63,760 nt of DNA from Patescibacteria group bacterium (GTDB lineage Bacteria > Patescibacteriota > WWE3 > JAUXAW01 > JAYEID01), in the NCBI GenBank assembly GCA_048621635.1, contig JBMCWH010000003.1, positions 1 to 63,760 of the forward strand. Direction: 5' to 3'. Positions within the stretch are counted from its first letter, which is position 1. Every line of letters begins with the position of its first letter. Of the stretch, positions 27,041-63,760 are shown piece by piece. The position numbers and the translations under genes were made by a program. A model generated the notes under the pieces. It did not search any database. It saw nothing but the letters and a program-made list of their open reading frames with translations, and was not told the origin of the DNA.

Positions 27041-27054
27041 ATTTATGCTTAAAT

Positions 27055-31650: not shown

Positions 31651-32233
31651 GCTACAAATAGAAATTAGTAGTAAGCATTAAGCAGTAAGCAGGAAGTAGT
31701 AAGCAGGAAGTAGTAAGCATTAAGCACCAAGCTCCAAATAACAAGTTCCAAAAAGGATTCGTATTTCGTATCTCGTATTACGTATCAAGAGAAATCAGAG
31801 ACTAGAGACTGGCGACTAGTACCTGGAGACTGGAGATAGGAAACTAGTAACTGGTATAGCGGGAACGGCGAAAGAAAAAGCCTGGCTTTGGGAAATTCGC
31901 CAGCTGAACAACTGTGGGTTTACGGGACTACGAAATGAGGAAAGTCGCCTACAACGGCGACCACGCTGAGCGGGGCGACCCGCCGTCTTAGGAGGGATTC
32001 TGAATCCCCCTTCGGGGGTTCAGAATGACGATACACGTGGTTAAGCGATTGAATAGTTTGTATTGAACATTTTGAACAAGTGAGCGAAGCGAACGGTTCA
32101 ACATTTTCAACAACTTAACCAAGCGTAACGATCCAACACTTTTGACATTTTGTACCGCATGCCGTGTACCGTATTTGGTATAGCAAATTATTACGAAAGG
32201 GAACAGTAAGTTCTATTTGTTCCATTTGTCTTA
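31651..32233. repeat. 580-nt non-coding block of stuttering word repeats and GC-rich hairpins
   Basis: Tandem AGTAAGCAGGAAGT x2 plus variants, CGTAT-type heptamer stutter, GAGACT stutter, GGTATAGC words, the hairpin ATTCTGAATCCCCC-ttcg-GGGGTTCAGAAT, and the word CAACACTTTTGACATTT. Confidence 0.8.
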
Positions 32234-32266
32234 TTGCCGGATACTGATGGCGGTTATGTTATAATA

Positions 32267-32554
32267 ATGGCAGTGGAAAAGATTGGTGATATTTTATCGA
32301 GGGAGGATCTCGGCCCCTCCAAACATATAAAACATGAATTTCAAGATTTTGGCTATCGGTTGGCTTGTGAGTTGGATGATCTTGAACACCGATCTTTGTA
32401 TATGAAACTTGCCAAAGAAGAACCACGCGGTAGGCTGGAGCGTGCACTGGAGTTTGTTAAAGGTAGAGATAATTTAGAAGGTGAGAAAGGAAAAGCAAAG
32501 CTTTTTATGTGGAAACTAAAAGATTTGCGGGAGAAGAAAGAGACGGAAGATTAG
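32267..32554 (+). CDS. Hypothetical 95-aa charged protein
   Basis: The ATG at 32267 lies within the tracked ORF. The sequence is helical and Lys/Glu-rich (HEFQDFGYRLA..LYMKLAK..FMWKLKDLR). No family recognised. Confidence 0.45.
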   Translation: MAVEKIGDILSREDLGPSKHIKHEFQDFGYRLACELDDLEHRSLYMKLAKEEPRGRLERALEFVKGRDNLEGEKGKAKLFMWKLKDLREKKETED

Positions 32555-32710
32555 AAACCGGTATAGCGAATTACTACGAATTATAAGTAGCTAATTTATG
32601 CGAATGGAAAGGAGTAAAAGATAGGTAACAGGTAACGAGCAGTTCGTTGACAGATTGAACAACTTCAACACTTTTGACATTTGGATTTTGAAATTTGTTA
32701 TTTTACTATT

Positions 32711-33040
32711 ATGGACGCAGTTTCTTTTGCGGAATTCAAAAAGTTAGATTTGCGGATAGGCGAGGTGGTGGAGGTGTTAGAAGTAGAGAGTTTGGACAAG
32801 GTACTGAAGCTTCGGGTTGATTTAGGTGAGTTAGGAATTAAGACTATTTTGGCCGGTGTTAAGGAGACTCATAGTAAGGAAGATCTAGTTAGAAAGCAGA
32901 TTGTGGTGGTTGCCAATCTTGCTCCTAAGAAGATTGGAGGGGAGGTTTCGGAAGGTATGCTTTTAGCTGTGGATACTGATAAAGAACCTGTCTTGCTAAC
33001 TCCAAATAGAAAAGTGGCAGTAGGCGCGAAAGTTGTTTAA
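32711..33040 (+). CDS. tRNA-binding domain protein (CsaA/Trbp111/EMAP-like)
   Basis: Contains FAEFKKLDLRIGEV, LKLRVDLGE and VVVANLAPKKIGGEVSEGMLLA. Confidence 0.8.
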   Translation: MDAVSFAEFKKLDLRIGEVVEVLEVESLDKVLKLRVDLGELGIKTILAGVKETHSKEDLVRKQIVVVANLAPKKIGGEVSEGMLLAVDTDKEPVLLTPNRKVAVGAKVV

Positions 33041-33049
33041 TCTGTGTAA

Positions 33050-33126
33050 GGGCCTGTAGCTCAGTGGTTTAGAGCGCCATCCTTATAAGATGGATGTCCC
33101 TGGTTCGAATCCAGGCAGGCCCACCA
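33050..33126 (+). tRNA. tRNA-Ile with anticodon TAT (UAU), CCA encoded
   Basis: Perfect 77-nt cloverleaf: GGGCCTG/CAGGCCC acceptor, GCTC/GAGC D stem, CCATC-CTTATAA-GATGG anticodon arm, CCTGG-TTCGAAT-CCAGG T arm. Confidence 0.85.
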
Positions 33127-33375
33127 TCCTCCTTCGCCGCGCCTGCCTGCCGGCAAGGCAGGGCTTCGGAGGACCTTCGGTCCGAACGAAACCCGTGCAG
33201 GGGAGATGCCCCTCGTAGTTCCGATTAGTCGGAACGAAGTGAGGCAAAGTACACCTTACGGCCCTTTGCTAAAGCTATGGACGACAGGCCAGGTGGCCTA
33301 CGGGCATCCGGACGCGAGTTTAGACGAAGGAGTGTCGTTTCCGTAGCCTTGTGCGAAAGGGCACATCAATGTAGG
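33127..33375 (+). repeat. GC-rich multi-hairpin block 3' of tRNA-Ile(UAU), related to the ITS and rRNA-insertion modules
   Basis: Stems closed by tetraloop-like sequences: GGACC-ttcg-GTCC, CCTGCC..GGCAGG, GTTCCG-attagt-CGGAAC. The 23-mer GCGAGTTTAGACGAAGGAGTGTC (33314-33336) matches 62806-62828 at 22/23 positions. It ends with CCTTGTGC-gaaa-GGGCACATCAA, like the start of the rRNA insertion. Confidence 0.7.
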
Positions 33376-33513
33376 TTTATGCGGAAAGAAATAAGCAAAG
33401 AGGTCTGTATGTGTTGACTTTCCTTTGATACTCAGCAGTTTGTATTTTGGAAGACGAAGATATTTAACAATTGAGGAAAGTTGCTTCCAAATTATTAACT
33501 ACTCACACCCTAA

Positions 33514-35949
33514 CTACTTTCGTTTACGTCGGGCTCTAAAAGCCCATTTAATTAATTCAATACCTACAATATCAATAGTTCCTAAAAGCATAATTAAGCC
33601 TATATCCATTGTTCGAAGAGGATTCAGTCTTAAGAAATTACGCAAGGGATGTATTAAGAAAGAGGATGTTAATAGAATAAGACCAGAGCCAATTGTTGCC
33701 AATAACATCCGATTTTTAATCGGCGGTGAATGGATAATACTCTTACTGAGGCTACGACAAGAGAAAACGTAAAGAAGCGAGTCCAAACCAAGAGTTCCGA
33801 ATGTAATTGTTCTAATGTGGTCTATTGATGTTCCTCTGTTAAACAACCATAAAGTTACTGTTAGCAAAATAGCATCTGTCATTAATCCTACAGCAAAGAT
33901 TATTGATTTTACCTCCTTATCCAACAGTGGTACGTCTGTAGGTATAGGTGCTTGCTGTAACAATCCTGGTTCTTTTCCTTCGAATGCTAACGCAACGCCT
34001 GGTAGACCGTCTTCTACTAAGTTTATCCATAAGATTTGGAACGGCAATATTGGTAGAGGAATTCCGGTTAATAGTGAACCTCCTATTAATACAACAGTAG
34101 TGAAGCTGTCAGAGAGAAGATATGCTAGTATTTTGCGTATATTTTTGTAAATACCGCGTCCCTCTTCAATTGCGTGTACTATAGAGCTGAAACTTGATTT
34201 TACTAAAGCCATGTCTGCAGTTTCTTTAGCTACCTCTGATCCTGTGCCCATAACTATCCCTATTTCCGCACGTTTTAAAGCTAGTGAATCATTTACCCCA
34301 TCACCGGTCATAGCTACAACCTCTTTTCTTTTTTGCAGTGCTTCGACAATGCGCAGCTTCTGGTGGGGGGCTGTTCTGCAGAAGAGCTTGATGTTCGGTA
34401 TTTTGTTATTCAGTTGCTTGTCGTTAAGTTGGTGAAGCTCCGTACCAGTGATAATTTCTTTTTCTTTCAGTTGAATATCCAGCTGTTTTAGAACAGCAAC
34501 TGCCGTTTCCTTTATGTCTCCTGTTACTACCTTAGTTTCCACTCCTGCTGTTTGACAGTCCTTCAAAGCTTTTTTGACTTCTTCTCGGACCGGATCTTCT
34601 GCGTAAAGTACTCCCAGCCACTTTAATGATTTTTCCTTATTTAAATTAGTTTCTTTTTCAATTCCGGCCTGTTTTCTGTAAGCATAACCGACCGCTCTCA
34701 ATCCCGTTCCTGCTTTTTCCTTGATTTTCTGTAGCTGTTTTGATTTTTCTTCTTCACTTATTCCGCATTTTTCCAAAACGACTTCTGGAGCACCTGCTAT
34801 GAATAGGTGTTTTTTTGTAAGGGCGGACGCTAGCTTGGTCTCTGATTCAAAAGGGTCATCATCAATAATTGTACTTTCTTTAACAATTTGTTCTGGGTCC
34901 TTTGCTCCGTTGTTTTTTAGCCATTCCCAAATTGCTTTTTCTAAAGGATCTGTTCTTGCGTTGCACAAGGCAGCTGCGTAACTGATTAAATTTAAGTTAG
35001 TTTCTTCATGTTTTGTTACTTGCATGTCTCCCAGTGTTAGGGTTCCTGTTTTGTCAACACAAATTACTGTAGTGGATCCTAAAGTCTCAGTTACTGTAAG
35101 TTTTTTAATTAATGCCCCGCGATTTAGAATGCGTTTCATTCCTAAGGCAAGCACAACAGTTAGAGATACGGCTAAGCCTTCGGGAACCGCAGCTACCGCT
35201 ATAGCTACGCTGGTAATAAACATTTGGTAAGGATCTCTCCCTGTTAAAATACCTTCAATAAAGATTAATGTGGCGAGGATACCTACTACCATGGCAATGG
35301 TTTTGCTTAACCTGTTGAGCTTTTTCTGAAGAGGAGTTTTTTCTGCTTCAGTGAGACTTAGTTTATGAGCAATTTGGCCGATTTTAGTATCTTTACCAGT
35401 CTTTTTTACAATCATCTGCCCTTTGCCTGCTCCAATTAAGGTGCCCTTATAAGCGTTATCATCTTTTTCTTTCTCAACTAGTGTTGATTCACCCGTTAAA
35501 GTAGCCTCATTTATTGCTAGGTTAGCAGGTTTTACTATTGTGCCGTCTGCAGGAACCTTACCACCCGCTTTTAAAAAAACGAGGTCACCAACTACAACAT
35601 CCTGAGTCGGAATTTCTTTTCTTTTTCCGTTCCGCAAAACTTCTGCTTTGAGGGTTTGTGCCTGGGCTAACTTTTCTAATACTTTTAGAGATTTTCTTTC
35701 TTGGATATAGCCTAAAATAATGTTTAAAAGGGCGGCAGCAGCTATAGTTATTGCATCTAGCTGTTCGTTTAGGAGGAAAGCGGTGGTTGCTGCGGTTATT
35801 AAAATATACATTAACGGATTTTTGAACTGTTCTAGAAAAAGCTCGAGTTGTGATGTTGGTTTTTTTCGAGGAATTAGGTTAGGGCCGTTTTTTTCTCTGC
35901 GCCTTTTTGCTTCTTCTTTAGTTAGACCGTTGTAGTTTTCTGGAAGCAT
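33514..35949 (-). CDS. Cation-translocating P-type ATPase (type II, Ca2+/Mg2+-like)
   Basis: DKTGTLT phosphorylation site, TGES, TGDIKETA, MTGDGVNDSLALK and about 10 TM helices. The ATG at 35949 gives the N-terminus MLPENYNGLTKEEAKRR. Confidence 0.9.
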   Translation of the reverse strand: MLPENYNGLTKEEAKRRREKNGPNLIPRKKPTSQLELFLEQFKNPLMYILITAATTAFLLNEQLDAITIAAAALLNIILGYIQERKSLKVLEKLAQAQTLKAEVLRNGKRKEIPTQDVVVGDLVFLKAGGKVPADGTIVKPANLAINEATLTGESTLVEKEKDDNAYKGTLIGAGKGQMIVKKTGKDTKIGQIAHKLSLTEAEKTPLQKKLNRLSKTIAMVVGILATLIFIEGILTGRDPYQMFITSVAIAVAAVPEGLAVSLTVVLALGMKRILNRGALIKKLTVTETLGSTTVICVDKTGTLTLGDMQVTKHEETNLNLISYAAALCNARTDPLEKAIWEWLKNNGAKDPEQIVKESTIIDDDPFESETKLASALTKKHLFIAGAPEVVLEKCGISEEEKSKQLQKIKEKAGTGLRAVGYAYRKQAGIEKETNLNKEKSLKWLGVLYAEDPVREEVKKALKDCQTAGVETKVVTGDIKETAVAVLKQLDIQLKEKEIITGTELHQLNDKQLNNKIPNIKLFCRTAPHQKLRIVEALQKRKEVVAMTGDGVNDSLALKRAEIGIVMGTGSEVAKETADMALVKSSFSSIVHAIEEGRGIYKNIRKILAYLLSDSFTTVVLIGGSLLTGIPLPILPFQILWINLVEDGLPGVALAFEGKEPGLLQQAPIPTDVPLLDKEVKSIIFAVGLMTDAILLTVTLWLFNRGTSIDHIRTITFGTLGLDSLLYVFSCRSLSKSIIHSPPIKNRMLLATIGSGLILLTSSFLIHPLRNFLRLNPLRTMDIGLIMLLGTIDIVGIELIKWAFRARRKRK

Positions 35950-36182
35950 ATTTCTTGAAGTATAGCATTTACGGAGAATTATAAATAACAAATTTTAAAT
36001 GACGAATCAGCTTTCGGCTATCAGCATTCAACCAGAAACATGAATACTGATTAAATGATTTTTGGTTTTTGAATTATATAGTATTAAAACTTATTTGATC
36101 GTTTAATCATTTACTAATGATACGGTATACGACATACGGTATATGGAATTAGGACCTTGTTATAGTATTGAGTTGGAGGGGA

Positions 36183-37067
36183 TTAGAGTTCTTCCAGTTC
36201 TTTAGTTTCTTTTTCTGGTCTATCTACGTATTGAAGATATTTTTCTGTGGAGGTTAGTCTTTTGTGCCCGATTAGGTTGGAAATGTATGTAACATCTGCT
36301 CCGCGGCTAAGATGGTGGGCGACAAAAGTATGTCTTAGGGAACTGACTGTTGCATCTTCAATTCCTGCTTTTTCAAAGTATCGATTGAGGGAAGCACGGA
36401 TATTACGGATTAGAAACGGGTTTCCTGTTTTGGTAATAAATAAGATATCGGAGTCACTTTCTGGGCGTACTTCTAGGTAATCCTTTATCGCTTCTTGTGC
36501 CGCTTTGTTTAGCGGTACAGCTCGTCCTGGGCGGCGGTGGGAGGGACGGACGTATAGCTCACCTGGGCCATTGTCGGAAAAGGTAATGTCCTCGATACGT
36601 ACTTCGCGGAGTTCCCCAATGCGGATTCCAGTTTGCAAAAGAAGTTCTACAACTGCGTACATTCTTTTATCATCGCGAACTACGTCGCGCAGGGCTCGAT
36701 ATTCCATTTCTAATAGTATTCGGGGGGGTTTAATTTCAAATTGAGGATGTTTTAAGCGTGATGCGGGGTTTTCGCTTATTTCTCCTTCTTCTTTGAGATG
36801 GCGAAAGAATGTGCGGATAGAATTTATTTTTCTGGAAATAGATTTCTTTGTGTAGCCAGAATCTTCTAAGTCATCGAGGAAAGAGGCAAGGTCTCCATAT
36901 TTTATCTCGTCTGCCTCTGGGTCATCTAAAAATTCTATAAGTTGTCTTATATCCGTTCCATAGGCTAGTACTGTTGATTCTGCCCTGTTTTTTTCTTCCA
37001 GATCTTCTATGAAACCGTCATAATTTTCGCGTAATGTAGCCATTATAGCCTTAAAAATATCAGACAT
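36183..37067 (-). CDS. Tyrosine recombinase (XerC/XerD-like)
   Basis: N-terminal SAM-like domain, then a catalytic region with R..., LRHTFVAHHL, GHKRLTSTEKY. Confidence 0.8.
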   Translation of the reverse strand: MSDIFKAIMATLRENYDGFIEDLEEKNRAESTVLAYGTDIRQLIEFLDDPEADEIKYGDLASFLDDLEDSGYTKKSISRKINSIRTFFRHLKEEGEISENPASRLKHPQFEIKPPRILLEMEYRALRDVVRDDKRMYAVVELLLQTGIRIGELREVRIEDITFSDNGPGELYVRPSHRRPGRAVPLNKAAQEAIKDYLEVRPESDSDILFITKTGNPFLIRNIRASLNRYFEKAGIEDATVSSLRHTFVAHHLSRGADVTYISNLIGHKRLTSTEKYLQYVDRPEKETKELEEL

Positions 37068-37176
37068 GTTTATATCTGTCAATAGTTTATTCTATGAGGC
37101 CCCTGTTATAGACATTAGCGAGAGTATTTTCTGTCCTTTTGTTGCAGTATTTCTTTTCCGTTGGTACTCTTCAAGT

Positions 37177-37578
37177 ATGGCGTATAAATTTCTAAATATA
37201 TTTTCCGGAGACGTGAGTGGAAATAAGTTTTTTAATATAGCTGGAAAATTATTGCTATTACTTTGTATTGTTCTGCTTTTAATGTCTTTATGGAGGGCTT
37301 TGTGGGGAAGTTTGTCGTCATTAGGGCGAGTGCGCCAGTTGAGAAAAGAGGTGGGTCTATTGCAAGAGCGGAATGAAGAGTTAAAGAGCGAGTTAGAAGA
37401 GAAGAAAACATTGCACTTTGTTGAGGAAGTTGCGAGAAGAGATTTAGGTATGGTGAAGGAATCCGAACAAGTGGTAGTTGTTCCTGGAGAAGACTCTCGG
37501 ATGAAGCATGATCCAGTTGGTGATAGTGCTCTTTCTCTGAAAACGTGGAAAGAATGGCTTTTCGTTTTTGGATGGTGA
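37177..37578 (+). CDS. ftsB: Septum formation initiator (FtsB/DivIC family)
   Basis: The ATG at 37177 is followed by a TM helix, a coiled coil (LRKEVGLLQERNEELKSELEE) and EEVARRDLGMVKE. Confidence 0.7.
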   Translation: MAYKFLNIFSGDVSGNKFFNIAGKLLLLLCIVLLLMSLWRALWGSLSSLGRVRQLRKEVGLLQERNEELKSELEEKKTLHFVEEVARRDLGMVKESEQVVVVPGEDSRMKHDPVGDSALSLKTWKEWLFVFGW

Positions 37579-37885
37579 TATAGCGAATAGTTATTCCGCT
37601 CACCGCGTGCCGCTTTCCGTCCTCAGCTACAAATTTGTAGCCGATTCTCAAGCGAGCAACTGACAACTATCTCTCTTTGCACCCTGCACCCCGTACCCTG
37701 TTATCACGGATTAAACGAGTTAAACCTTAAAGGGTTCTCCGGTTATAAGATACAAAATACGATATACGAAATACGGTATATACTGTATTGCCCATTAGCA
37801 TTTGATATTAGGCTTCCACTAAAGCTACTTCCTACTAGTTATAGCTTGAGTGCTTTGTCTATATTTGCTATAATAGTAAGCACGA

Positions 37886-37963
37886 CGCGGGGTGGTGTAG
37901 CGGACTGCATGCGAGGCCCATAACCTCGAGGTAGGAGGGTTCGACTCCCTCCCCCCGCAACCA
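37886..37963 (+). tRNA. Initiator tRNA-fMet (CAT), CCA encoded
   Basis: Starts CGCGGGG and ends CCCCGCAACCA, giving the bacterial initiator C1xA72 mismatch. The anticodon loop is CCCATAA. Confidence 0.8.
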
Positions 37964-38104
37964 TCACGACATCCAAAGTTGCCGAAGGCAACTTCCGCCG
38001 GGATGCCCCGTTGGAAACGAGCGTTAGCGAGTTTTGGATAACGGGGCAGCGATTTTACGGCAGGGTAGCTCAGGTGGCAGATAATAATTTGACAGACTTT
38101 TAAG

Positions 38105-38803
38105 ATGGCTAAGTCAAAAGAACGTTTAAAAGCTAGAAAATTAAGGAGAGCAGGAAGTAGTATTAACGAGATAGCTGAAAAGGTTAATGCGTCAAAAAGC
38201 AGTATAAGTAGGTGGTGTAGAGATGTTGAGTTAATCGAAGAGCAAAGAAGAGACTTGCTTAAGAGAGCAGAAGACGGGGCGGCCAAAGGCCGATTGAAAT
38301 GGGCAAAAATACAGAAGCAACGGCGGTTGACAGAGATTAGAACTTTATGTAAAGAGGGAATTGAAGAAGTGGGAGATTTGAACAGAAGAGATTTTTTTCT
38401 GACCGGGGTAGGTCTCTATTGGACGGAAGGATTTAAATCCAATGACAGATGCGGTTTTATAAACTCCGATCCGGAAATGGTCTGTTTCTTAATCCTTTGG
38501 ATGAAGACCTTTTTTGATCTGGAAGACGAAGATTTTTATGTTAACGTAGATATAAATATTGCTCATAAGGAGAGAATTGAAGAAGTAGAGAAGTTCTGGT
38601 CTGATGTTACAGGGATTCCGGTTGAACGCTTTCGAAACCCCAGTTATAAGCGTTATAAATTAAAGAAGAAATTCGAAAATTTTGAAAATCACTACGGTTC
38701 CTTGCGAGTATATGCAAAGAAAGGAACCAAGAAATTCAGGAAAATAAGAGGCTGGATTGAGGGTTTGAAAGGTAATTTTGATAAAAAGGCTATTGACTAT
38801 TAG
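38105..38803 (+). CDS. Putative LAGLIDADG-type homing endonuclease with an N-terminal HTH
   Basis: 232 aa. HTH (SINEIAEKVNASKSSISRWC) and one LAGLIDADG-like motif (FFLTGVGLYWTEGFK). The stop codon directly abuts tRNA-Met. Confidence 0.5.
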   Translation: MAKSKERLKARKLRRAGSSINEIAEKVNASKSSISRWCRDVELIEEQRRDLLKRAEDGAAKGRLKWAKIQKQRRLTEIRTLCKEGIEEVGDLNRRDFFLTGVGLYWTEGFKSNDRCGFINSDPEMVCFLILWMKTFFDLEDEDFYVNVDINIAHKERIEEVEKFWSDVTGIPVERFRNPSYKRYKLKKKFENFENHYGSLRVYAKKGTKKFRKIRGWIEGLKGNFDKKAIDY

Positions 38804-38877
38804 GGCAGGGTAGCTTAACGGTAGAGCAGAGCTCTCATAAGGCTCCGGAGAGGGTTCGATTCCCTCCCCTGCCACCA
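38804..38877 (+). tRNA. tRNA-Met (CAT; elongator type, or Ile2 if lysidinylated), CCA encoded
   Basis: GGCAGGG/CCCTGCC acceptor, GAGCT-CTCATAA-GGCTC anticodon arm, GAGGG-TTCGATT-CCCTC T arm. Confidence 0.85.
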
Positions 38878-39030
38878 TTTTTTTTACCAACTTTGAGTTT
38901 TAGGACAAGAATTTGTTGTCCGTAGCTTTGTGTTGGGGAACAGTCAACGCGTATCTCTCCAAAACTACGAAAATATCCCCCAGTCATAAAATTAGTGACC
39001 CCTGACAGACTCTTTAGTTATACATGGTGT

Positions 39031-39990
39031 ATGAAACAAATAGGGATCTTGCTAGGTGGTGTTTCTTCAGAACATAGAGTATCTCTCAAATCTGGGCAGG
39101 CAGTGTTGGATAATATTAATCGCAGGAAGTATAAGCCTTGTAAACTTAAAATAAGGGAAGACGGTAGGTGGTGTTTTTCCATTAAAGAACTGAAAGGAAT
39201 GGATTGTGTTTTTATTGCTTTACACGGGAAGGGTGGGGAGGACGGTACAATACAGGGTTTTTTAGAAACATTGGGTGTAAATTACACTGGACCGGGGGTG
39301 TTTTCATCTGCTCTAGGAATGGATAAATACAGTTGTAAAGAGCTATGGAAAGGGCATGATTTGCCAACAATACCGCATCAGATTGTTGAAACACCGCAAG
39401 AATGTCTTAGTAATCATTTTCCTTTTGTTCTTAAACCTCGGAAGGAAGGTTCTTCTCTAGGCATATCGATTGTGAGAAAAGAAGCAGAAGTTGGAGAATG
39501 CTTTGAAAATGCCCGTCATTATGACGAAGATGTTTTGTTAGAGCCTTATATAAAAGGAAGAGAGTTGACTGTAGGCGTGTTAAATATTTCCGGACAGCTA
39601 AAAGCTTTGCCTATAGTTGAGATTATACCGGCTACAGAATTTTATAATTATGAAGCTAAGTACAACCGTAGTGATACGGAATATATTGTTCCTGCAAACC
39701 TTTCGGCGAAGGTAACACGGAAAATACAAGAAATTGCTGTGAGAGCCTGTAAGATAATTAAAATAAATTCTTTCTCCCGTGTAGATTTCTTGTTAGAGAC
39801 TACGCACCCTTACTTGTTGGAAGTGAATACTATACCAGGTCTTACTTCCCATTCTCTTCTTCCCAAAGCCGCCCAAGCTAATGGTATTTCTTTTACTGAA
39901 TTGATTAGTAGAATGATCGAAGGGGGCTTTAACAATCGAACAACCCGTCTGCCGACCCGTTTCGATGCGAGGCGCGCGGGGCAGGTTTAA
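39031..39990 (+). CDS. ddl: D-alanine--D-alanine ligase
   Basis: MKQIGILLGGVSSEHRVSL, ALHGKGGEDGTIQG, ATP-grasp motifs, and EVNTIPGLT. The last ~20 aa run into a GC-rich repeat. Confidence 0.9.
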   Translation: MKQIGILLGGVSSEHRVSLKSGQAVLDNINRRKYKPCKLKIREDGRWCFSIKELKGMDCVFIALHGKGGEDGTIQGFLETLGVNYTGPGVFSSALGMDKYSCKELWKGHDLPTIPHQIVETPQECLSNHFPFVLKPRKEGSSLGISIVRKEAEVGECFENARHYDEDVLLEPYIKGRELTVGVLNISGQLKALPIVEIIPATEFYNYEAKYNRSDTEYIVPANLSAKVTRKIQEIAVRACKIIKINSFSRVDFLLETTHPYLLEVNTIPGLTSHSLLPKAAQANGISFTELISRMIEGGFNNRTTRLPTRFDARRAGQV

Positions 39991-40265
39991 CCTTTGCGGT
40001 TTTCCTTGGCTGGCTTTTTTCCTTCCTCGGCTCTCTCCCGTTCCCGATTTTAGGTCGGAAAACCAGCCCACCAGCTAACTAGCTTACTTGACTTTTCTTT
40101 ATTCTTGAAGCTCTTCTATACGAGATACAAAATACGAGATATACAATCCGGTATACCAGCTGTGTCATAGTTATCATTGCTTAACTTTTGGTTACCTTTT
40201 AGAGGCAAATGTTAAAGGGCAGTGGTTAGCTGTCAACCATTGCTGGTCTCTTGTTTTAGTATTCA

Positions 40266-42200
40266 GTGGCTGAAAATAGCTTGAGGCTGTGGTATAATCT
40301 ATATGCTGTGGATAATTCATTATTAGACAAATCGAAAAAGCAAGGCATTCCTACTCCTCAAGAAAATAAAAATAATTTAGTAAAAAATTTTATTCTTTAC
40401 GGTTTTCTTGCCTTGGCAGCTTTTGTTGTGCTTATGGCTTTTGGTTCATTAGGTGAGTCTGTAGAGGAAAAGTCAATCACCGAGGTGTTGTCATATATTC
40501 GGAAAGGGTCGGTTCAGGAAGTGGTTGTTTCTGGGGATGACCTACGTGTTACTTTGGACGATGGGAAAAAAGTGCGTGCTGTTAAGGAGCCAGACCAAAG
40601 TTTTATTTCCCTGCTTACGGAACAAGGTCTAAGTGTTGATGATATTGCGGAAAGCATAAAGGTAGAGGAGCCAACAGATATTTCTTGGGTAGATATTGTA
40701 ATCAACTTTTTGCCCCTTGTCTTAATGGTGGTCTTTTTTGTTATGTTATTCAAACGTGCTGGTGGGAATGGGGGACCAGGTGGAGGATTGCTTAGTTTTG
40801 GGAAAAGTAAAGCACAACGGTTTGGTAAAGAACAGCCACAAGTCAGTTTTGATGATGCTGCCGGTTTAGATACTGCTAAAAAAGAGTTACGAGAGGTAGT
40901 TGATTTTTTGAAAAATCCGGGCAAATATCGAAAATTGGGGGCTAGAATTCCGAAAGGTGTTTTGTTAGTCGGTCCAGCAGGTACTGGTAAAACTCTCCTT
41001 GCACGCGCAGTAGCTTCAGAGGCGAATGTTCCTTTCTTTTCAGTAGCCGGTTCAGAGTTTATGGAAATGTTGGTTGGTGTAGGATCTGCACGCGTGCGAG
41101 ATTTGTTTAAAACTGCTAAGCAAAATGCTCCTAGCTTGGTGTTTATTGACGAGATAGAAACTATTGGCCGGCATCGTGGTGCTTCTATGATGTCTCAAGG
41201 TGAACAGGAGCAGACTCTTAATCAAATTTTAACAGAAATGGATGGTTTTGAACCTAATGCAGGGGTAGTGGTTATTGGTGCGACTAATCGACCACAACTT
41301 TTGGATCCTGCTCTGGTTCGTCCTGGTCGGTTTGATCGCCGTATTGTGCTGAATCTTCCTGATATTGAAGGGCGGGAGGGGATTATTAAGATCCATATGA
41401 AGGGAAAACCTTTTACTGATGATGTGGATGTGGAACGGCTGGCGCGGAGAACTGCAGGGTTTTCTGGGGCAGATATTGAAAATATGCTGAATGAGGCTGC
41501 TATTCTTGCTGCTCGGGAAGGAAAAAAGAAAATAGGCAAAGAGGAGCTGGAAGAAGCTGCAACTAAAGTAAAGTTGGGTCCAGCCAAGAAACGGTTGCAA
41601 ACAGAAGAGGAACGGCGTTTAACAGCTTTTCATGAAGCGGGGCACGCAGTTGTGTCTTACAGTCTTCCCAACACAGATCCTGTCCACCGAGTTTCTATTG
41701 TTTCCCGCGGCCTAGCTCTTGGATTTACGATGATCCCTCCTACTGTAGATCGTTATAACCAAACCCAGACTAGGCTTGAGGAACAGATAGTAGCTCTTCT
41801 TGGTGGGCGTGCTGCGGAAAGTATGGCCTTAGGTGAGTTTAGTATTGGAGCCTCTTCGGATATTCAGGAGGCAACTAAGATTGCTCGCAAAATGGTTACG
41901 GAATACGGAATGAGTTCTTTGGGTCCTATTTCTTTGGTTTCTTACGACCGTGGAGGGTCCGATGATAATTTCTCTTGGAGAGGGGGCTTATCAGAAAAGA
42001 TAGAATATTCGGAGGAAATGGAAAAGAAAATAGATCGGGAGGTTAAGAAAATTATCGATCAAAGTTTTGAACGGGCGAGAAAAGAGCTAGAAAATCGGCA
42101 GGATGTGTTGGAAAGGGTGGCGGAGAAACTTATGGAACAAGAAACAATTGGTGGAGATGAGTTTAGGAAATTGATGGAGGGAGATCTTTCTGAGGAGTAG
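40266..42200 (+). CDS. ftsH: ATP-dependent zinc metalloprotease FtsH
   Basis: [15 protein letters not shown], the SRH region, and the zinc site HEAGHAV. The GTG start is uncertain. Confidence 0.93.
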
Positions 42201-42209
42201 CTTTGCATT

Positions 42210-43106: not shown

Positions 43107-43196
43107 ACAGGTTCTTATATACCCAACTACTAGCTACTAACTGCTCCTAATTACTATTTACTACTAATCAGCAAATTTGTTTGCTAAACTTGGTAT

Positions 43197-44333: not shown

Positions 44334-44369
44334 TTGTTTTTCCTCTTTGTGTTAGAATAGTCCTCAGAT

Positions 44370-45200: not shown

Positions 45201-45336
45201 AGAATAAGTGCTAGATAATAAAGAAAAAGAGACTAGGGACTGATATAGCGAATTATTACGACTAGGAAAGGAAAGAGGTCCACACAGTTTATCGGCAATA
45301 AGCAATTGAATACTATAACTATTTAATTATTGAACC

Positions 45337-46497: not shown

Positions 46498-46584
46498 AGA
46501 AAGAAATTGGAGACTAGAGACTAGTAACTGGTAATTAGAATTTCGTATACCGTTATTATTTGTAGTAATTCGCCATATCAACAA

Positions 46585-47133: not shown

Positions 47134-47192
47134 ATTATTTATTTGCATCTTGTTCTTAGGAAGGTTTTTCCTTAGAATCAAGGTGTGGGTCT

Positions 47193-48965: not shown

Positions 48966-48983
48966 GAATGTTAAAATACTGAT

Positions 48984-50033: not shown

Positions 50034-50123
50034 ATTTGTACAAAAGCTCCTATCAGTTCCTGTCCTGTTTTTCATGGTCGGATATGTGCGAATCGTATTG
50101 TAAAAAGTCTCTACCTTTTTGAC

Positions 50124-50286
50124 AGAAGACGGTGGGCCGTTCCCAAAAACGTTCGCCTTGGTTAGTATCTGCCGGAATTTATTTTTTTAGGCTCACTCAG
50201 CGAAAAATTTACATCTAGGTTGGCTTTTGTTGACACTTACAGAAAGTAAATTTTTCGGTGTTTTGGTTAATGATCCACCGTCTTCT
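50124..50286. promoter_or_regulatory. Nested perfect inverted repeats in the Fic-ligase intergenic region
   Basis: The outer 12-bp inverted repeat is AGAAGACGGTGG (50124-50135) / CCACCGTCTTCT (50275-50286). The inner 12-bp inverted repeat is CGAAAAATTTAC (50201-50212) / GTAAATTTTTCG (50246-50257). Confidence 0.6.
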
Positions 50287-50320
50287 ATTTGACATGTTGG
50301 GGTTAGGTTAGCAGTTGCTT

Positions 50321-52090: not shown

Positions 52091-52333
52091 TTTGCTCGCG
52101 GTCAAATAAGGGTATGACAGTGAGGCTGTGTATGTAATTCGGTATGCGATTCTTGGTATACGGTGACAGACGATATCGGTTATATCAAATACTAGTTTCC
52201 AGTTTCTAGTCTCTAATTTCCGGTTTTTTTTTCTTTTGTATACTGTTGACAGTTTGGCTCTTTCTCGTTACTCTGAGGGTGTACTAGAGATAAATTTTTT
52301 TGGATTAATTTTTTGAAGGGAGGTGAATAACTG

Positions 52334-52750: not shown

Positions 52751-52780
52751 ATTAGGTTTGGTTGAGATCAATTAAAAGGG

Positions 52781-52812
52781 GACAGCTTTAATTAGCTGTC
52801 TTCTTTTTTTTG
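52781..52812 (+). terminator. Rho-independent terminator
   Basis: GACAGCT-ttaatt-AGCTGTC followed by TTCTTTTTTTTG. Confidence 0.7.
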
Positions 52813-52861
52813 TTAGGGTTATGTGGTTGTTTTGGCTTGGGGGAGATGCTATCCTAACCGT

Positions 52862-54165: not shown

Positions 54166-54252
54166 TGAATTTTCCGCGTTCCGCTAACCGTAAACCGCTT
54201 TCGGAAGAAGCGGAGGGCGGGTTCGCGGTGTGCTGATCGCTGAGATTTAATT

Positions 54253-55218: not shown

Positions 55219-55272
55219 TTTGAGGTTGGAAAGCAGTAACACTTTGCCTTACGTTGATGTTATCATCCAAAT

Positions 55273-56004
55273 ATGAAAACACTAGGAATTGATGAGGCAG
55301 GGAGAGGTTGTGCAATTGGTCCCATGGCAGTTGGGGGTGTGCTGGTTAGAGATGGGGATTTAGAATCTCTAAAAAGTTTGGGGGTTAAAGATTCGAAGCA
55401 TCTTTCTCCGGGAAAACGTGAAGAACTTTTTCCCCAGATTAAAGAAAAAGCTCTTTTTTATGAAGTAAAGTTTATCTCTCCTTCTGATATTGATGAGAGT
55501 AATTTAAATCAGATTGATCTTCAGGAAATTATTTCTTTTGTTGCAAAACTAAACCCCAACAAGGTTATTTTTGATGTTCCTACTAACCCTTCCGGTGTAG
55601 AGAATTTTGTTAAAGCAGTAAGGTTGGGTTTAGGGGAATCTGTCGATTCCTTATTAAAATCTGTCCAAGGAAAAACTTCGGAGGTTGGATCTACAGAAAC
55701 CTCCGAGGTTGAGGAATTGGGCAGGGAGAGAAGTAACCAACCGGAGCTAATCGGAGAAAACAAAGCGGATGAAAATTATCCCATTGTTTCTGCCGCCTCT
55801 GTTTTGGCAAAAGTAGCGCGTGATCAGGTTATTGAAGAGCTGCATAAACAGTATGGAGATTTTGGTTCAGGGTATATGAGTGATGAGAAAACACAGGTGT
55901 TTTTAAGGGACTGCTTTGCAAAGAATGGAGATTTCCCTCCTATTATTCGCCGCAAATGGAGCTCAGTACAAGGATTTTTACAAAAGCAGAGGAAACTTAT
56001 CTGA
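55273..56004 (+). CDS. rnhB: Ribonuclease HII (with an extra ~25-aa Ser/Glu-rich segment)
   Basis: GIDEAGRGCAIGPM, KDSK and VSAASVLAKVARD. There is an extra segment, KTSEVGSTETSEVEELGRE. Confidence 0.85.
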   Translation: MKTLGIDEAGRGCAIGPMAVGGVLVRDGDLESLKSLGVKDSKHLSPGKREELFPQIKEKALFYEVKFISPSDIDESNLNQIDLQEIISFVAKLNPNKVIFDVPTNPSGVENFVKAVRLGLGESVDSLLKSVQGKTSEVGSTETSEVEELGRERSNQPELIGENKADENYPIVSAASVLAKVARDQVIEELHKQYGDFGSGYMSDEKTQVFLRDCFAKNGDFPPIIRRKWSSVQGFLQKQRKLI

Positions 56005-56066
56005 TTTTGTATATTCCTTCCTACTTGTGATCTTATCCCAATTCTATTTGTTATAATATTTTATAG

Positions 56067-56945
56067 ATGAGTAAAGTTGCTCTGATTGGAAAACAAGGTC
56101 GGGGGGAAAATATTACCCAAGCTTTAAGTTTGGTGGGGGATAACTTTATCTCCAAATTCCATGCTGCCAAAAAACCCTTAATAAAAGTTAATTTTGTATC
56201 TTCAACCCGACAGTTAGCTGCAACTCATGTGGATGCAGTTCGCACAGTCTTAAATTTCTTGCTTCCTTATACAGATAAAAAAATAACTATTGCGGAAGCG
56301 TCTGTCCGAAATACAAAAACCGGGTTTGAAAATTTTGGTTATACAGAATTGCAAAAAGATTATGAACAAATTGAGTTAGTGGATTTGAATGGTACCCAGA
56401 CAGAAGAGCATGCCGGTTTTTCTTTGTCCAAAATTGTCCTAGATTCGGACTTTCGTATTAGTATTGGTCCTCCTAAGACTCACGACACTACTATAATAAC
56501 CGCAGCAATGAAAAATATGGCAGTGGGATCTATTATTACCGGAGAAGGTGTTTTAGGCAGGCATCTACGTTCTGGTTTCCATCAAGGAAGTTATCGCGAT
56601 TCCAATAAAAGGTTAGTTGATATTTATCAATTTGTTTTCCCCCATTTAGCAGTTGTTGACGGGTTTTTGGGTATGCAAGGTTCCGGACCGTCTAGTGGGG
56701 ACCCTGTGGAATCTGATTGGGCTTTGGTAGGAACAAATGCTGTTGAGGTTGATGCTGTTTGTGCGTATTTGGTGGGATATGCTCCTGAAGATATTGGTTA
56801 TCTTTGGTTTGCGCAGGAGAAAGGTTTGGGAAAAATTGATCTTTCCGAGATTGAGATTGAGGGGGACGAGCCTGAACAGTTAAGGCGAGAATTTGCGAAC
56901 CACCCTAACTACGTATCTGAATTATCTTGGCGAGAGCATGCGTAG
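56067..56945 (+). CDS. DUF362 domain protein
   Basis: IKVNFVS, PKTHDTT, MKNMAVG and VVDGFLGMQGSGP. Confidence 0.7.
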   Translation: MSKVALIGKQGRGENITQALSLVGDNFISKFHAAKKPLIKVNFVSSTRQLAATHVDAVRTVLNFLLPYTDKKITIAEASVRNTKTGFENFGYTELQKDYEQIELVDLNGTQTEEHAGFSLSKIVLDSDFRISIGPPKTHDTTIITAAMKNMAVGSIITGEGVLGRHLRSGFHQGSYRDSNKRLVDIYQFVFPHLAVVDGFLGMQGSGPSSGDPVESDWALVGTNAVEVDAVCAYLVGYAPEDIGYLWFAQEKGLGKIDLSEIEIEGDEPEQLRREFANHPNYVSELSWREHA

Positions 56946-56986
56946 TTGGTAGAGAAAGTCGTTGTGTCTATGTTAGAATTTAGAAA

Positions 56987-57490
56987 ATGCAAATTTTAGA
57001 GGCAATAAAAACAAGGCGAAGTATACGTGCTTTTAAGGAAAAAGATATTTCCGAAGGAGATTTAGATAGGTTGAAAGAAGCTTTGCGTTGGGCACCTAGT
57101 GCCCGAAATTTACAGCCGCGTAAATTTTACTTCGTAATGACTGAGGAAAAGCGTAAGCAATTGGATTCTGCTGTTTCCCAATCTTTTGTTTGTCGCGCGC
57201 CCCTTGTGGTTGTTGCTTGCAGAGATTTGGAAAAAGCTCGCGGAGAAAAAGGCGAGAATTTATATTCTATTACTGATACCTCTTTTTCTCTTCAAAACCT
57301 GGTTTTAGCAGCTTGCGAGCTAGGGCTGGGTACTTGTTATATAGGCGCGTTTAATCGTAAGAAAGTTGCTGAGCTTCTAGATCTTCCTGAAAATCTTAGG
57401 CCTATGCTTCTTGTTCCTGTTGGTTATCCTGCGGAGCAACCCTCTCCTACTTCTCGTGTTCCGAAAGAAGACGCGGTTACAGAACTTTAA
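56987..57490 (+). CDS. Nitroreductase family protein
   Basis: IKTRRSIRAF, APSARNLQP and a typical length of 167 aa. Confidence 0.8.
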   Translation: MQILEAIKTRRSIRAFKEKDISEGDLDRLKEALRWAPSARNLQPRKFYFVMTEEKRKQLDSAVSQSFVCRAPLVVVACRDLEKARGEKGENLYSITDTSFSLQNLVLAACELGLGTCYIGAFNRKKVAELLDLPENLRPMLLVPVGYPAEQPSPTSRVPKEDAVTEL

Positions 57491-57520
57491 GTATGTTTGG
57501 GTTGTGCTAGAATATTTTCA

Positions 57521-58450
57521 ATGCCGGAAACTTATGATTTGATAATAATTGGAGCTGGTCCAGCTGGTTTGGCTGGTTCATTTTACGCATCTCGTTGTTT
57601 TTCCTTAGACACTCTTGTTTTCGATGGCTCTCCGGGAGGACAGATGGCAGAAGCTAGACAACTCGCTAGTTATCCGGGGTTTAAGAACATATCTGGTTGG
57701 GAACTTATGGAGAATATGTTGGAGCAAGCAAAATCTTTCGGTGTAGAAATAAAAACTAAGAAAGTTACTACTGTGAGGGAGCGGGAGGGAGTATTTGTTG
57801 TTTCTACGGAGGAGGAAACTTATCAGGCGAAAACTGTTTTAGTTGCTATAGGAGCTGGCCCTAGGAAATTGGGTGTTCCTGGGGAGGAAGAGTTTATCGG
57901 TAAAGGTATCTCTTATTGTGCGCTTTGTGATGCGCCTTTTTATAAAGACAAGGTAGTGGGTGTTGTGGGGGGAGGGGATAGTGCTCTGGATGGGGCTTTA
58001 GAGCTTTTGGAACACGTGAAGAAGATTTTTTTGATCCATCGCCGGGAAGAATTTCGTGCCAAACCTTTGTTTGTCCAAAAGATTAAGGAAGCTGAAAATG
58101 TTGAATTAGTTTTAAAAAGAAATGTGGTTAGGGTGGAAGGTGAAGAAATGGTAAACAAATTGATTTTGGATATGCCTTATCAGGGAGCTGACTTCTTGAA
58201 GGTGGACGGAGTGTTTATCGAGATCGGTAATGTCCCTGACAGAGAGTTTTTGGAAGATATTGGCTTGGAAACAACTGAGCAGGGATACGTACCTGTTGCT
58301 GAGGACATGCGCACTAATATTGAAGGTATATATTCTGCAGGAGATGTAACCACAGCCTCTAATGGGGTTAAGCAGATTGTTACTGCCTGTAGTGAAGGAG
58401 TGATAGCTGCAAAAAGTATCTATAATTATCTTCGTAAAGAAGGGAGGTGA
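57521..58450 (+). CDS. trxB: Thioredoxin-disulfide reductase (canonical NADPH motifs)
   Basis: GAGPAGL, CALCDA, GGGDSALDGA and HRREEFRA. Confidence 0.88.
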   Translation: MPETYDLIIIGAGPAGLAGSFYASRCFSLDTLVFDGSPGGQMAEARQLASYPGFKNISGWELMENMLEQAKSFGVEIKTKKVTTVREREGVFVVSTEEETYQAKTVLVAIGAGPRKLGVPGEEEFIGKGISYCALCDAPFYKDKVVGVVGGGDSALDGALELLEHVKKIFLIHRREEFRAKPLFVQKIKEAENVELVLKRNVVRVEGEEMVNKLILDMPYQGADFLKVDGVFIEIGNVPDREFLEDIGLETTEQGYVPVAEDMRTNIEGIYSAGDVTTASNGVKQIVTACSEGVIAAKSIYNYLRKEGR

Positions 58451-58458
58451 AAGATATA

Positions 58459-58650
58459 ATGCCAGAAAAAAGAAACTTAACCATAGATCCTGAGAAGTGT
58501 ATTGGATGTGGGTTGTGTGCTACTATTGCGGGCGAAACGTTTAAGTTAGGAGAAAGTGGAAAGGCAATTGTAACTGATTCGGAAGGGAATTCGCGCGAGG
58601 AAATTGAAAAAGCTATTGAGTCGTGCCCCGTAGATGCAATTAGTTGGTAA
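58459..58650 (+). CDS. Small single-cluster ferredoxin
   Basis: 63 aa from the ATG at 58459, which has a GGGAGG RBS. Contains CIGCGLC...CP. Confidence 0.75.
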   Translation: MPEKRNLTIDPEKCIGCGLCATIAGETFKLGESGKAIVTDSEGNSREEIEKAIESCPVDAISW

Positions 58651-58916
58651 CTTTCGTCTCTGTATTTGCTAGATTTTGGTTTTGGGCAAATCCGCATATT
58701 ACAGCTAGTCGTTCGTACTATTAACTGTTGACTGTCAACGGCTGACTGTTATCTGTTACTGATTATTAGTCTCTAATCTCTAATTTTCTAAGTTTCCGTT
58801 TTCCCTCTCGTTCAATTAATCAACTAATCATTTTTTGAGTTGATATAGCTTAACTAGCAAATCGACTAATTTTGTATATCAGTCCAGTTTTTGAGGAATG
58901 GTAGAATAACCTTGTG

Positions 58917-60304: not shown

Positions 60305-61944
<1,640 letters not shown>

Positions 61945-63032: not shown

Positions 63033-63760
<728 letters not shown>

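Follow-up and report, generated by a model that had tools for sequence, protein, structure and literature searches.

Tandem arrays with a period of 7 nucleotides (nt) lie at 12 intergenic loci between 31.6 and 58.9 kb of a 63,760-nt stretch of DNA from an uncultured, ultra-small Patescibacteria group bacterium (GenBank assembly GCA_048621635.1, contig JBMCWH010000003.1), which we call the window. A sequence-only reading of this stretch had listed three families of recurrent intergenic words, (a), (b) and (c). It had missed what nearly all of the words have in common: by autocorrelation and by Tandem Repeats Finder (TRF) they are 7-nt tandem units. Blocks of these units are homologous between loci and recur on other contigs of the same genome, while the same words are absent from syntenic relatives. 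We lean toward regarding the arrays as degenerate heptanucleotide satellites, resembling short tandemly repeated repetitive (STRR) sequences and long simple sequence repeats (LSSRs), that slip in 7- or 14-nt steps and spread between spacers.

Intergenic words are built from heptamers

We scanned the window with degenerate word patterns and compared the matches with expectation from 100 shuffles. The 20-mer GRTATAGCRAATTAYTACGA of motif (a), scanned with a tolerance of 3 mismatches, occurred in four copies with at most 2 mismatches (0.03 expected), a number reached in 0/100 shuffles. Family (b), GAGACTAGAGACTRG (GAGACTR), gave 13 matches with at most 3 mismatches at 5 loci (2.15 expected; 0/100 shuffles). 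Family (c), ATACGANATACGANATAC (ATACGAN), gave 12 matches at the same tolerance (0.29 expected), 10 of them at 6 intergenic loci. A weak (c) match with 3 mismatches, at 59857-59874 in the coding sequence of the 58914-60056 gene, is probably due to chance. Every convincing copy of the three families is intergenic, and most lie 0-70 nt downstream of a stop codon. The words thus exceed chance in shuffled-sequence controls, and the dispersed, modular intergenic family described earlier is real. Its membership needed some correction. Four of the listed motif (a) sites are full copies, whereas 31853 (GGTATAGCG) and 37577 (GATATAGCGAAT) are 5' half-copies and not full members; most listed (c) copies stood, but the one at about 52140-52170 is too degenerate to pass the word test. 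The names given to the flanking genes agreed with Pfam matches and synteny.

In the intergenic DNA after 31 kb, lag-7 self-match was 34.7%, compared to 27.2% in shuffles (z = 11), with further signals at lag 14 (z = 7.2) and lag 21 (z = 2.8). Coding DNA showed no signal (25.9% at lag 7). Strict lag-7 segments numbered 9 versus 1.5 in block shuffles, and 8 were intergenic; the ninth, a short segment at 59831-59869, was the only one within a gene (58914-60056). At a looser threshold we obtained long segments of 203, 88, 75, 58, 57 and 51 nt, all intergenic and all after 31 kb. TRF assigned a period of 7 or 14 to 12 arrays, including the previously unlisted AGTAAGC, TGCACCC and AGTTTCC, and further unit types (NNNNCCG, GCACCCY, NNACTAC and TGACTGT) were found in other gaps.

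Within arrays, identity at lag 7 was 0.47-0.72, compared to about 0.2 at lags 5, 6, 8 and 9. Since lag-14 identity equaled or exceeded lag-7 identity in several arrays, the unit of duplication there appears to be a two-unit block. The arrays were longer than those in shuffles, with TRF unit matches of 68-100% and at most two or three adjacent units identical, and they are far more degenerate than classical STRRs.

Arrays at different loci are homologous modules with copies outside the window

Short-word BLAST between gaps returned blocks of 25-48 nt, 79-92% identical between loci and in both orientations. Family (b) aligned over 31 nt at 84-87% identity among 31791+, 46503+, 52220- and 58786-, and the alignment took in the non-repeat left flank GAAATY; the inverted array at 52187-52226, for example, matched 31791-31821 at 87% over 31 nt. 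Family (c) aligned over 25-33 nt at 85-92% among 36120, 37748, 40123 and 31786-, with unit variants in the same order (AGATACAAAATACGA...). Here the units at 36116-36150 matched 37757-37781 at 92% over 25 nt, and the array at 40114-40158 matched 37748-37780 at 85% over 33 nt, again with its variants in the same order. Slippage acting separately at each locus would give neither shared flanks nor a shared order of units; hence, the blocks were copied between spacers in both orientations. These alignments indicate that the dispersed copies are homologous modules and not independent stutters. The modules also form composites, since motif (a) is joined to arrays of the other families: it lies directly 3' of a (b) array at 31853 and 45242, and at 32177 it comes after (c)-like units in inverted orientation.

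To look for copies outside the window, we aligned contigs of the source metagenome to the repeats and compared depth with single-copy depth. Depth over the modules was 4-35x the single-copy value. A first pass gave 4-9x (e.g., 174 versus 19.5 at 31733), and the AGTAAGC core reached 763 versus 22, part of which is accounted for by the array's own internal repetition. Separate contigs of 3878, 13441, 6249 and 5458 nt, at the genome's own depth (18-24), hold copies. The 3878-nt contig matches 31652-31719 with 4 mismatches, the 13441-nt contig matches 31679-31725, and the 5458-nt contig matches 32556-32614; another match, to 32560-32605, lies on a second contig of the same genome. The 6249-nt contig carries an inverted pair of motif (a), about 27 nt apart. 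On the 6249- and 5458-nt contigs, motif (a) is preceded by TCGTATTTCGTATCT ((c) inverted) or GAAATTGGAAACTAGTAACTGG ((b)). Module order differs on other contigs, for example 31661 + TTAC + 45245-45273 + 20 nt + 32593. Because further contigs at the same depth carry copies in other orders, the mosaic character is genome-wide, and the family is not confined to the window, a limit that the sequence-only reading had allowed for.

A contig from the same population, L061, of an NCBI metagenome-assembled genome (MAG), differs from the window by 9 single-nucleotide polymorphisms and 1 indel in 18 kb. This sole indel is 14 nt long (AGTAAGCAGGAAGT), exactly two units, and lies at 31684-31697 inside the post-lepA array. 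A Logan contig of metagenome run X1 agrees with the window's version.

Words are lineage specific, while arrays are common in Patescibacteria

The window is about 40% G+C with a strongly positive GC skew; its + strand carries nearly all genes, and a 16S-tRNAIle-tRNAAla-23S operon forms its 3' end. The lepA product is identical on NCBI MAG contig JBMCUG010000005.1 (GCA_048622755.1) and on a Logan contig from a microbial-mat metagenome, and the window sequence is present in four DNA runs (X1-X4) from microbial-mat and hypersaline-lake samples. None of the transcriptome runs screened for the organism contains it; the best shares 14% of its 16S words. RecF homologues place the organism in Patescibacteria (candidate phyla radiation [CPR]): the named neighbors, at about 40% identity, are Gottesmanbacteria and the Microgenomates group, and further relatives lie at 47-56% RecF identity. 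The RecF database search returned no homologue between 56% and 100% identity, which makes an empty-site/filled-site comparison impossible.

We compared seven syntenic loci (L104-L110) that share the order xer-divIC-ftsH-exonuclease-glycosyltransferase-mutM-recF-ligT-ABC. The window's words were found in none of them. At the word level there were only three matches: an exact 16-mer, ACCAAGCTCCAAATAA, from the 31726-31741 module, which the nearest relative, L108, carries at another locus, and a pair of exact matches, 14-15 nt long, to L104 and L107, neither within a heptamer array proper. The recF-ligT spacer is 87 nt long and nearly all repeat in the window; in L104, L108 and L110 it measures 5-44 nt and contains no repeats. 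Relatives have arrays of their own: TAGCAAC/TAGTAAC in L104 and the period-8 words ACATCCAA, CTGTCAAA and TTTCTAAT in L107. In the exonuclease-glycosyltransferase spacer, L109 has ATCAACT x4 and L107 has period-8 arrays, where the window has CAACTAC/TAGCTAC. Just 3' of ftsH, L107 (790-867) and L109 (2919-3019) carry inverted array pairs followed by T-runs, a terminator-like arrangement. L107 also has period-8 arrays and GC-rich palindromes seemingly within its 5'-3' exonuclease and glycosyltransferase reading frames (773-1585 and 2039-4077), such as CCCTTCGGGTTGGGG...CCCGAAGGGTTGGGG and GGCAGTCGGGCGGTTA x3 followed by CTGTCAAACTGCCAAA x2; genes are uncalled there and the scaffold has N-runs.

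A further 80 Patescibacteria loci (1.2 Mb), fetched via a conserved small protein, came from Woese-, Gottesman-, Collier-, Shapiro- and Beckwithbacteria and others. Strict lag-7 arrays occurred at 7.3 per 100 kb in these loci; the window had 14.1 per 100 kb, and 885 kb from unrelated bacteria had 2.1 per 100 kb. By a crude open reading frame (ORF) mask, the 14.5% of their sequence that is intergenic held 40% of the lag-7 arrays and 7% of the lag-6 arrays. Certain loci equal the window in array density: 12 kb of L173 (Collierbacteria) contains 11 arrays, and L167 and L126 are also rich. L173 (4589-5604) and L126 (15421-17064) contain near-perfect heptamer arrays, including TAACCGA/GAACTGA/TAACTGA, the last a word of Beggiatoaceae, in L173, as well as inverted pairs (AGTGAAT x4 ... 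ATTCACT x5; TTTTCGG arrays facing CCGAAAA arrays). Arrays are common across the phylum and the window's words are absent from its relatives, which argues that the process is widespread and the words are lineage specific.

Arrays are neither terminators nor promoters

RNA folding z-scores were -1.7 to +0.2 for 10 of 11 array-bearing stretches, which are thus unstructured. In the exception, 37579-37700 (z = -2.3), the structure belongs to a small hairpin distinct from the arrays, GCUACAAAUUUGUAGC. The earlier view that the words are not hairpins of the repetitive extragenic palindromic (REP) type agrees with these scores, and the arrays contain no 20- to 40-nt palindromic hairpin of the kind found in REPs, bacterial interspersed mosaic elements (BIMEs) or REP doublets forming hairpins (REPINs). 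Nor are the arrays CRISPRs, as had also been said: the units are contiguous 7-mers, and there are no identical 24- to 48-nt repeats with regular unique spacers. A search within 500 nt in all repeat-bearing gaps found no inverted arms flanking the modules. The terminal inverted repeats and target-site duplications that define miniature inverted-repeat transposable elements were not found around them either; an origin in decayed miniature mobile elements, one of the roles suggested earlier, is possible for the 20-55 nt core of motif (a).

Terminator arrays, another suggested role, did not hold up. No stem with a T-run occurs at the arrays; terminator-like sites were not enriched (14 versus 15.1 and 16 versus 12.4 expected), and none coincides with an array. 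Promoter-like sites were likewise neither enriched nor coincident with arrays. Ordinary hairpin terminators are found elsewhere in the window (13519-13565 and 52774-52807). We conclude that the arrays are neither terminators nor promoters. With Rfam 15, only rRNA and tRNA reached the gathering score in the whole window, and nothing was found at E <= 1 in 31500-40400.

Several identities for motif (a) were considered and rejected. A database match to a tRNA-like short interspersed nuclear element had raised the possibility of a tRNA fragment; the match is due to chance, and the window's six tRNAs share nothing with (a). Perhaps the two copies around a 95-amino-acid (95-aa) ORF bound a mobile gene cassette? 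L104 lacks (a) but has this ORF, in synteny and with 80% identity; hence, motif (a) is not a cassette boundary. Finally, motif (a) might have been an extended -10 promoter (TGNTATAGC), which is ruled out for the 95-aa gene, the one gene that can be judged. The promoter of this apparently leaderless gene, TGTTATAAT, abuts the ATG about 60 nt downstream of motif (a) and is conserved with L104, so motif (a) is not its promoter. One motif (a) copy points antisense into recF. Exact 18- and 20-mer scans of 596 Gb of species-representative genomes and metagenome contigs gave only single matches, which lie in coding DNA (for the peptide IANYYD) and are about as many as chance predicts.

Layout of the arrays

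The loci are collected in Table 1. Over the 203 nt of the post-lepA array, identity was 0.63 at lag 7 and 0.58 at lag 14. All modules of the post-divIC/ftsB spacer lie upstream of the tRNA-Met promoter (37846-37874). An (a)-like word, TTGATATAGC, lies at 58836, near the array of the ferredoxin gene.

Table 1. Repeat modules and other features in the window
Coordinates	Strand	Feature	Basis or context
31654-31856	+	Post-lepA array of 29 heptamers in a single 7-nt register: AGTAAGC/AGGAAGT (31667-31745), bridging units, inverted (c) TTCGTAT x4 (31755-31789), (b) GAGACTR x8 (31790-31860)	TRF; one continuous lag-7 segment, 203 nt
31853-31861	+	5' half-copy of motif (a), GGTATAGCG, abutting the (b) array	Word scan
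32151-32196	+	Heptamers TGTACCG CATGCCG TGTACCG TATTTGG ((c)-inverted-like), then full motif (a) GGTATAGCAAATTATTACGA (32177-32196)	Word scans; lag-7
32560-32614	+	Motif (a) GGTATAGCGAATTACTACGA (32560-32579) with conserved 3' extension to about 32614	6 nt 3' of the stop codon of the conserved 95-aa gene
35998-36150	+	Heptamers AATCAGC TTTCGGC TATCAGC (35998-36034); (c) ATACGGT ATACGAC ATACGGT (36116-36150)	xer(-) / P-type ATPase(-) spacer
37577-37785	+	(a) half-copy GATATAGCGAAT (37577-37588), NNNNCCG (37590-37625), GCACCCY x3 (37673-37705), (c) x5 (37741-37785)	Word scans, TRF, lag-7; post-divIC/ftsB spacer
40114-40158	+	(c) array ATACGAG ATACAAA ATACGAG ATATACA	ddl-ftsH spacer
43118-43175	+	Heptamers CAACTAC TAGCTAC TAACTGC ... 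TACTACT	Lag-7; 5'-3' exonuclease-glycosyltransferase spacer
45229-45275	+	(b) GAGACTA GGGACTG, then full motif (a) GATATAGCGAATTATTACGA (45242-45261) and flank	Post-mutM
46502-46579	.	(b)+ (46502-46545), (c)-inverted fragment TTTCGTATACCG, inverted motif (a) (46560-46579)	recF-ligT spacer
52187-52226	-	Inverted (b) AGTTTCC AGTTTCT AGTCTCT AATTTCC	After lig; upstream of promoter-like TTGACA-17-TACTCT
54169-54200	+	NNNNCCG heptamers TTTTCCG CGTTCCG CTAACCG TAAACCG	Lag-7; 4 nt 3' of a stop codon
58715-58795	.	TAACTGT TGACTGT CAACGGC TGACTGT TATCTGT TACTGAT, then inverted (b) TTAGTCTCTAATCTCTAATTT	TRF; word scan; lag-7; post-ferredoxin
32177+, 32560+, 45242+, 46560-		Full copies of motif (a)	Word scan
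31791-31854+, 45229+, 46503-46531+, 52192-52220-, 58766-		Family (b) loci	Word scan
31761-85-, 32164-, 36120-44+, 37750-81+, 40118-42+, 46531-		Family (c) loci	Word scan
26276-29606	-	Cohesin and dockerin genes, three side by side	Pfam

Other sequences lie close to the modules of the lepA region. Directly 3' of the (a) half-copy, 31862-32045 is a GC-rich element that folds at -56 kcal/mol (z = -3.3 for 31900-32045) and contains a 13-bp hairpin, GGGAUUCUGAAUCCCCCUUCGGGGGUUCAGAAU; the word GTTCAGAATGACGAT recurs in L107. The element may represent a structured RNA that lacks annotation, or else a small insertion. At 32066-32143 there is a 34-nt tandem repeat in 2.2 copies, AACATTTTCAACAACTGAACCAAGCGTAACGATCC. 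The 15-mer CAACACTTTTGACAT is present at both 32134 and 32666, and a 16-nt inverted repeat (32650-32665 / 33030-33045; 94% complementary) flanks a gene for a tRNA-binding domain.

Relation to known heptamer repeats

Heptamers are the commonest unit among prokaryotic LSSRs of 5-11 nt, for which slippage of the polymerase has been invoked (Mrazek 2007, as cited in PMC4679880). Intergenic spacers of Microcystis, Nostoc, Gramella and Elizabethkingia contain mixed assemblages of heptamers, and 7-nt indels separate Cyanothece strains (PMC4679880). Marine Beggiatoaceae carry TAACTGA repeats (MacGregor 2015, PMC4679880). Geobacter metallireducens has 4 x GGACCGG at 49 sites and 5 x MTYCTGA at 15 sites (PMC2700814), and heptamer repeats found upstream of recF and recO in Nostoc have an effect on reporter expression (bioRxiv 10.1101/2022.06.06.494920). 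A text search for heptamer arrays in CPR bacteria found none reported; the search was limited and does not prove absence. To our knowledge, neither a binding protein nor a copying mechanism has been described for any of these systems.

Like STRRs and the mixed heptamer assemblages, the window's repeats are head-to-tail 7-nt units in dispersed intergenic arrays, with several words per spacer and both orientations. Unlike them, they reside in a tiny-genome CPR bacterium and not in a cyanobacterium, Bacteroidetes or Beggiatoaceae, their units are 60-75% identical, and their arrays, mostly of 4-10 units, are coupled to a unique core of 20-55 nt. STRR-type systems differ between strains in 7-nt increments, whereas here there is one 14-nt difference, possibly an assembly collapse. 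The words GGGACTG and ACTGTTG resemble the reverse complements of STRR1 and STRR3, and TTACTGA resembles TAACTGA; the likeness, at 6/7 positions, could be chance.

The Beggiatoaceae TAACTGA repeats are likewise intergenic heptamer direct repeats (2-6 copies) at many loci of microbial-mat organisms. There, however, one dominant, near-perfect word, oriented forward, precedes start codons by a few nucleotides and overlaps the ribosome-binding region, while the window has several degenerate words of no fixed orientation, mostly just 3' of stop codons. The Geobacter metallireducens elements share with ours the form of dispersed homologous blocks of a few tandem heptamers, found by nucleotide BLAST between loci, but they are GC-rich, fixed in length and also located within genes; the window's arrays are AT-rich, intergenic, variable in length and mosaic. 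Proteobacterial BIMEs/REPs and REPINs are also short extragenic modules in varied orders and orientations. In contrast to these, our modules are tandem heptamers without palindromes, hairpins or stem-loops, and the window has no gene of the REP-associated tyrosine transposase (RAYT) type. In size, the dispersed core seen here, at 20-27 nt, is like the small dispersed repeats of Nostoc.

Origin of the arrays

The arrays belong to a repeat class known from cyanobacteria, Beggiatoaceae, some Bacteroidetes and Geobacter, here in a new phylum and in a degenerate mosaic form with an attached core. In the explanation that we favor, degenerate satellites would lengthen and shorten in place, in 7- or 14-nt steps, by slipped-strand mispairing or unequal exchange, and point mutation would then decay them, so that the word drifts along the array. 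Blocks of units, often with the 20-55 nt core of motif (a), would be copied between intergenic spacers in either orientation to give mosaics; the copies themselves are observed, and their route might be ectopic recombination, gene conversion or small-element mobility. A 7-nt unit shifts the reading frame, which would explain why arrays survive only between genes. The arrays would then be tolerated spacer DNA with no sequence-specific function of their own.

Several observations weigh against this explanation. Units are only 60-75% alike, and imperfect arrays slip poorly. Pure local slippage does not explain why the same words, with conserved boundaries, turn up at many loci, and the explanation must therefore assume a copying mechanism. 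The 14-nt difference from L061 is what slippage predicts, but a collapsed MAG assembly could look alike, and the four metagenome runs showed no 7-nt indels among their contigs, although minor variants are hidden in contigs. The intergenic gaps before 31 kb have almost no signal (28.5% lag-7 self-match), which the explanation does not account for. A load of about 1 kb of repeat per 30 kb in a streamlined genome hints at some benefit, and the inverted pairs of L107 and L109 suggest that arrays can become parts of functional-looking structures.

Could motif (a) itself be the mobile entity? Its core of 20-55 nt with flanking arrays would then be a very small non-autonomous repeat, moved in trans by an enzyme encoded elsewhere and inserting preferentially in or beside heptamer arrays, much like the Nostoc small dispersed repeats or REPINs. 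The genome has no fewer than 8 copies, 4 in the window plus at least 4 on other contigs; they lie in both orientations, and each abuts a (b) or inverted (c) array; the inverted pair at one outside locus has a REPIN-like layout; the syntenic spacers of relatives are short and lack motif (a); and the 16-nt word of the 31726-31741 module lies at another locus in L108. We nonetheless consider this unlikely. The modules lack terminal inverted repeats, target-site duplications and hairpins, and the window has no transposase or RAYT-like gene, its only helix-turn-helix (HTH) ORF (38105-38803) having weak N-terminal matches. The exact-pattern scans of genomes and metagenome contigs gave only single chance matches in coding DNA, and no empty-site/filled-site pair exists at close distance, no relative in the databases exceeding 56% RecF identity.

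Two functional explanations fare less well. The heptamer families might be multivalent cis-regulatory platforms on DNA or transcript that tune flanking genes by binding a cold-shock-, S1- or CsrA-type single-strand binder or a regulator that reads direct repeats. Such platforms have been proposed in Beggiatoaceae (PMC4679880), as "global regulatory elements" in Geobacter (PMC2700814) and for Nostoc recF/recO (bioRxiv 10.1101/2022.06.06.494920), systems that lack any known binding protein. Binding would be consistent with the position of the arrays at gene boundaries, with a few words recurring at 5-6 loci each at 84-92% identity, above the identity of neighboring units, and with the related words AACTAC and ATCAACT in the same exonuclease-glycosyltransferase spacer of the window and L109. 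However, the families occur in both orientations relative to co-directional flanking genes ((b) 3+/2-, (c) 3+/3-), at variable distances from stops, starts and promoters, and beside unrelated housekeeping genes. Their words are not conserved in syntenic relatives, and for the 95-aa gene it is the promoter TGTTATAAT that is conserved with L104, not the motif (a) upstream. On this analysis a regulatory role is distinctly unlikely. Very improbable, in our view, is that the arrays are hairpin-less transcription stops or insulators, such as Rho-loading (Rho utilization [rut]-like) tracts of C-rich, G-poor unstructured RNA after stop codons. On the transcribed strand, the (b)+ and AGTAAGC arrays are rich in G/A and poor in C. 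Arrays of one family are found in both orientations, terminator-like sites show no enrichment, and the genome has ordinary intrinsic terminators. These points outweigh the facts that most arrays begin 0-70 nt 3' of a stop codon and are unstructured, that the + strand is C/U-rich and G-poor at 37590-37705, 40060-40100, 43118-43175, 52187-52240, 54169-54200 and 58760-58830, and that the inverted pairs with T-runs in relatives look terminator-like.

A broader idea, which we regard as quite improbable, is that heptamer and octamer arrays are an undescribed clade-wide feature of Microgenomates-type Patescibacteria, either as modular noncoding building blocks or as the product of a dedicated activity. 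Unpaired arrays would then serve, for example, as protein- or Rho-loading platforms, and inverted pairs with T-runs as terminators; alternatively, the activity would be shared, perhaps horizontally, with cyanobacteria, Beggiatoaceae and Bacteroidetes of the same mats.

Under the satellite explanation as well, the finding brings a poorly understood repeat class into a new phylum. Patescibacteria genomes are among the smallest and most streamlined in bacteria, and spacers full of drifting 7-nt arrays are thus unexpected there. The homologous dispersed blocks sharpen the question of how arrays spread and what, if anything, binds them. There is also a practical consequence: arrays break short-read assemblies, as seen in metagenome contigs that end within them, and can create false length variants in MAGs.

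Other elements in the window

A family of GC-rich, structured-looking elements occurs at 33127-33400, 37960-38060, 62349-62422, 62759-62880, 60374-60551 (16S) and 63315-63471 (23S), and gave no Rfam match. Blocks sharing GCGAGTTTAGACGARGGAGTGTC follow tRNA-Ile(TAT), tRNA-Ile(GAT) and tRNA-Ala. The 16S and 23S genes both carry an insertion of two blocks, one of 48 nt (90% identical) and one of 106 nt (92% identical), separated by about 25 nt; the 16S match exceeds the model by about 105 nt. CGAGCGTTAGCGAG occurs in these blocks and also in the spacer that follows tRNA-Met. Elements of a similar kind are present in L104 and L110. The family could represent intervening sequences or processing stalks.

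At 38060-38877, the 5' 22 nt of a tRNA-Met gene (GGCAGGGTAGCTCAGGTGGCAG, at 38060) are followed by the 232-aa ORF at 38105-38803, with its weak N-terminal matches to transposase/resolvase-type HTH domains, and then by a complete tRNA-Met starting at 38804. In L104, two tRNA-Met genes are adjacent, without this ORF. The arrangement has the appearance of an insertion that entered a tRNA gene and left it restored.

Three tandem 24-nt units, each an imperfect palindrome (TGAACCCGACGTGGTTCA...), directly follow tRNA-Asn at 3056-3125, and L104 has a hairpin like these, GTACCACGTGGGGTAC, upstream of tRNA-Ile. The tRNA-Ile at 33050-33126 has the anticodon TAT, which is uncommon in bacteria, and is next to the 95-aa gene in L104 too. 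In the first half of the window, the word (A/T)TAGTYCGAAYTTCGT directly follows three stop codons (5164-5180, 5785-5801 and 7586-7600), with 2 matches at up to 3 mismatches (0.07 expected) and a weaker third. A set of surface proteins such as the cohesin/dockerin trio is unusual in a CPR bacterium.

A 281-nt gap precedes the gene for the ATP-dependent DNA ligase and contains nested inverted repeats at 50124-50286 (27 nt, 78% complementarity; 15 nt, 93%) that may form a structured leader. Extended -10 boxes (TGNTATAAT / TGATATACT) lie 3-15 nt upstream of start codons at 32255-32269 and many other sites (e.g., 7970-7985 and 24005-24025); the box at 32255-32269, before the 95-aa gene, is conserved in L104. 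Such close spacing suggests leaderless mRNAs or mRNAs with very short leaders.

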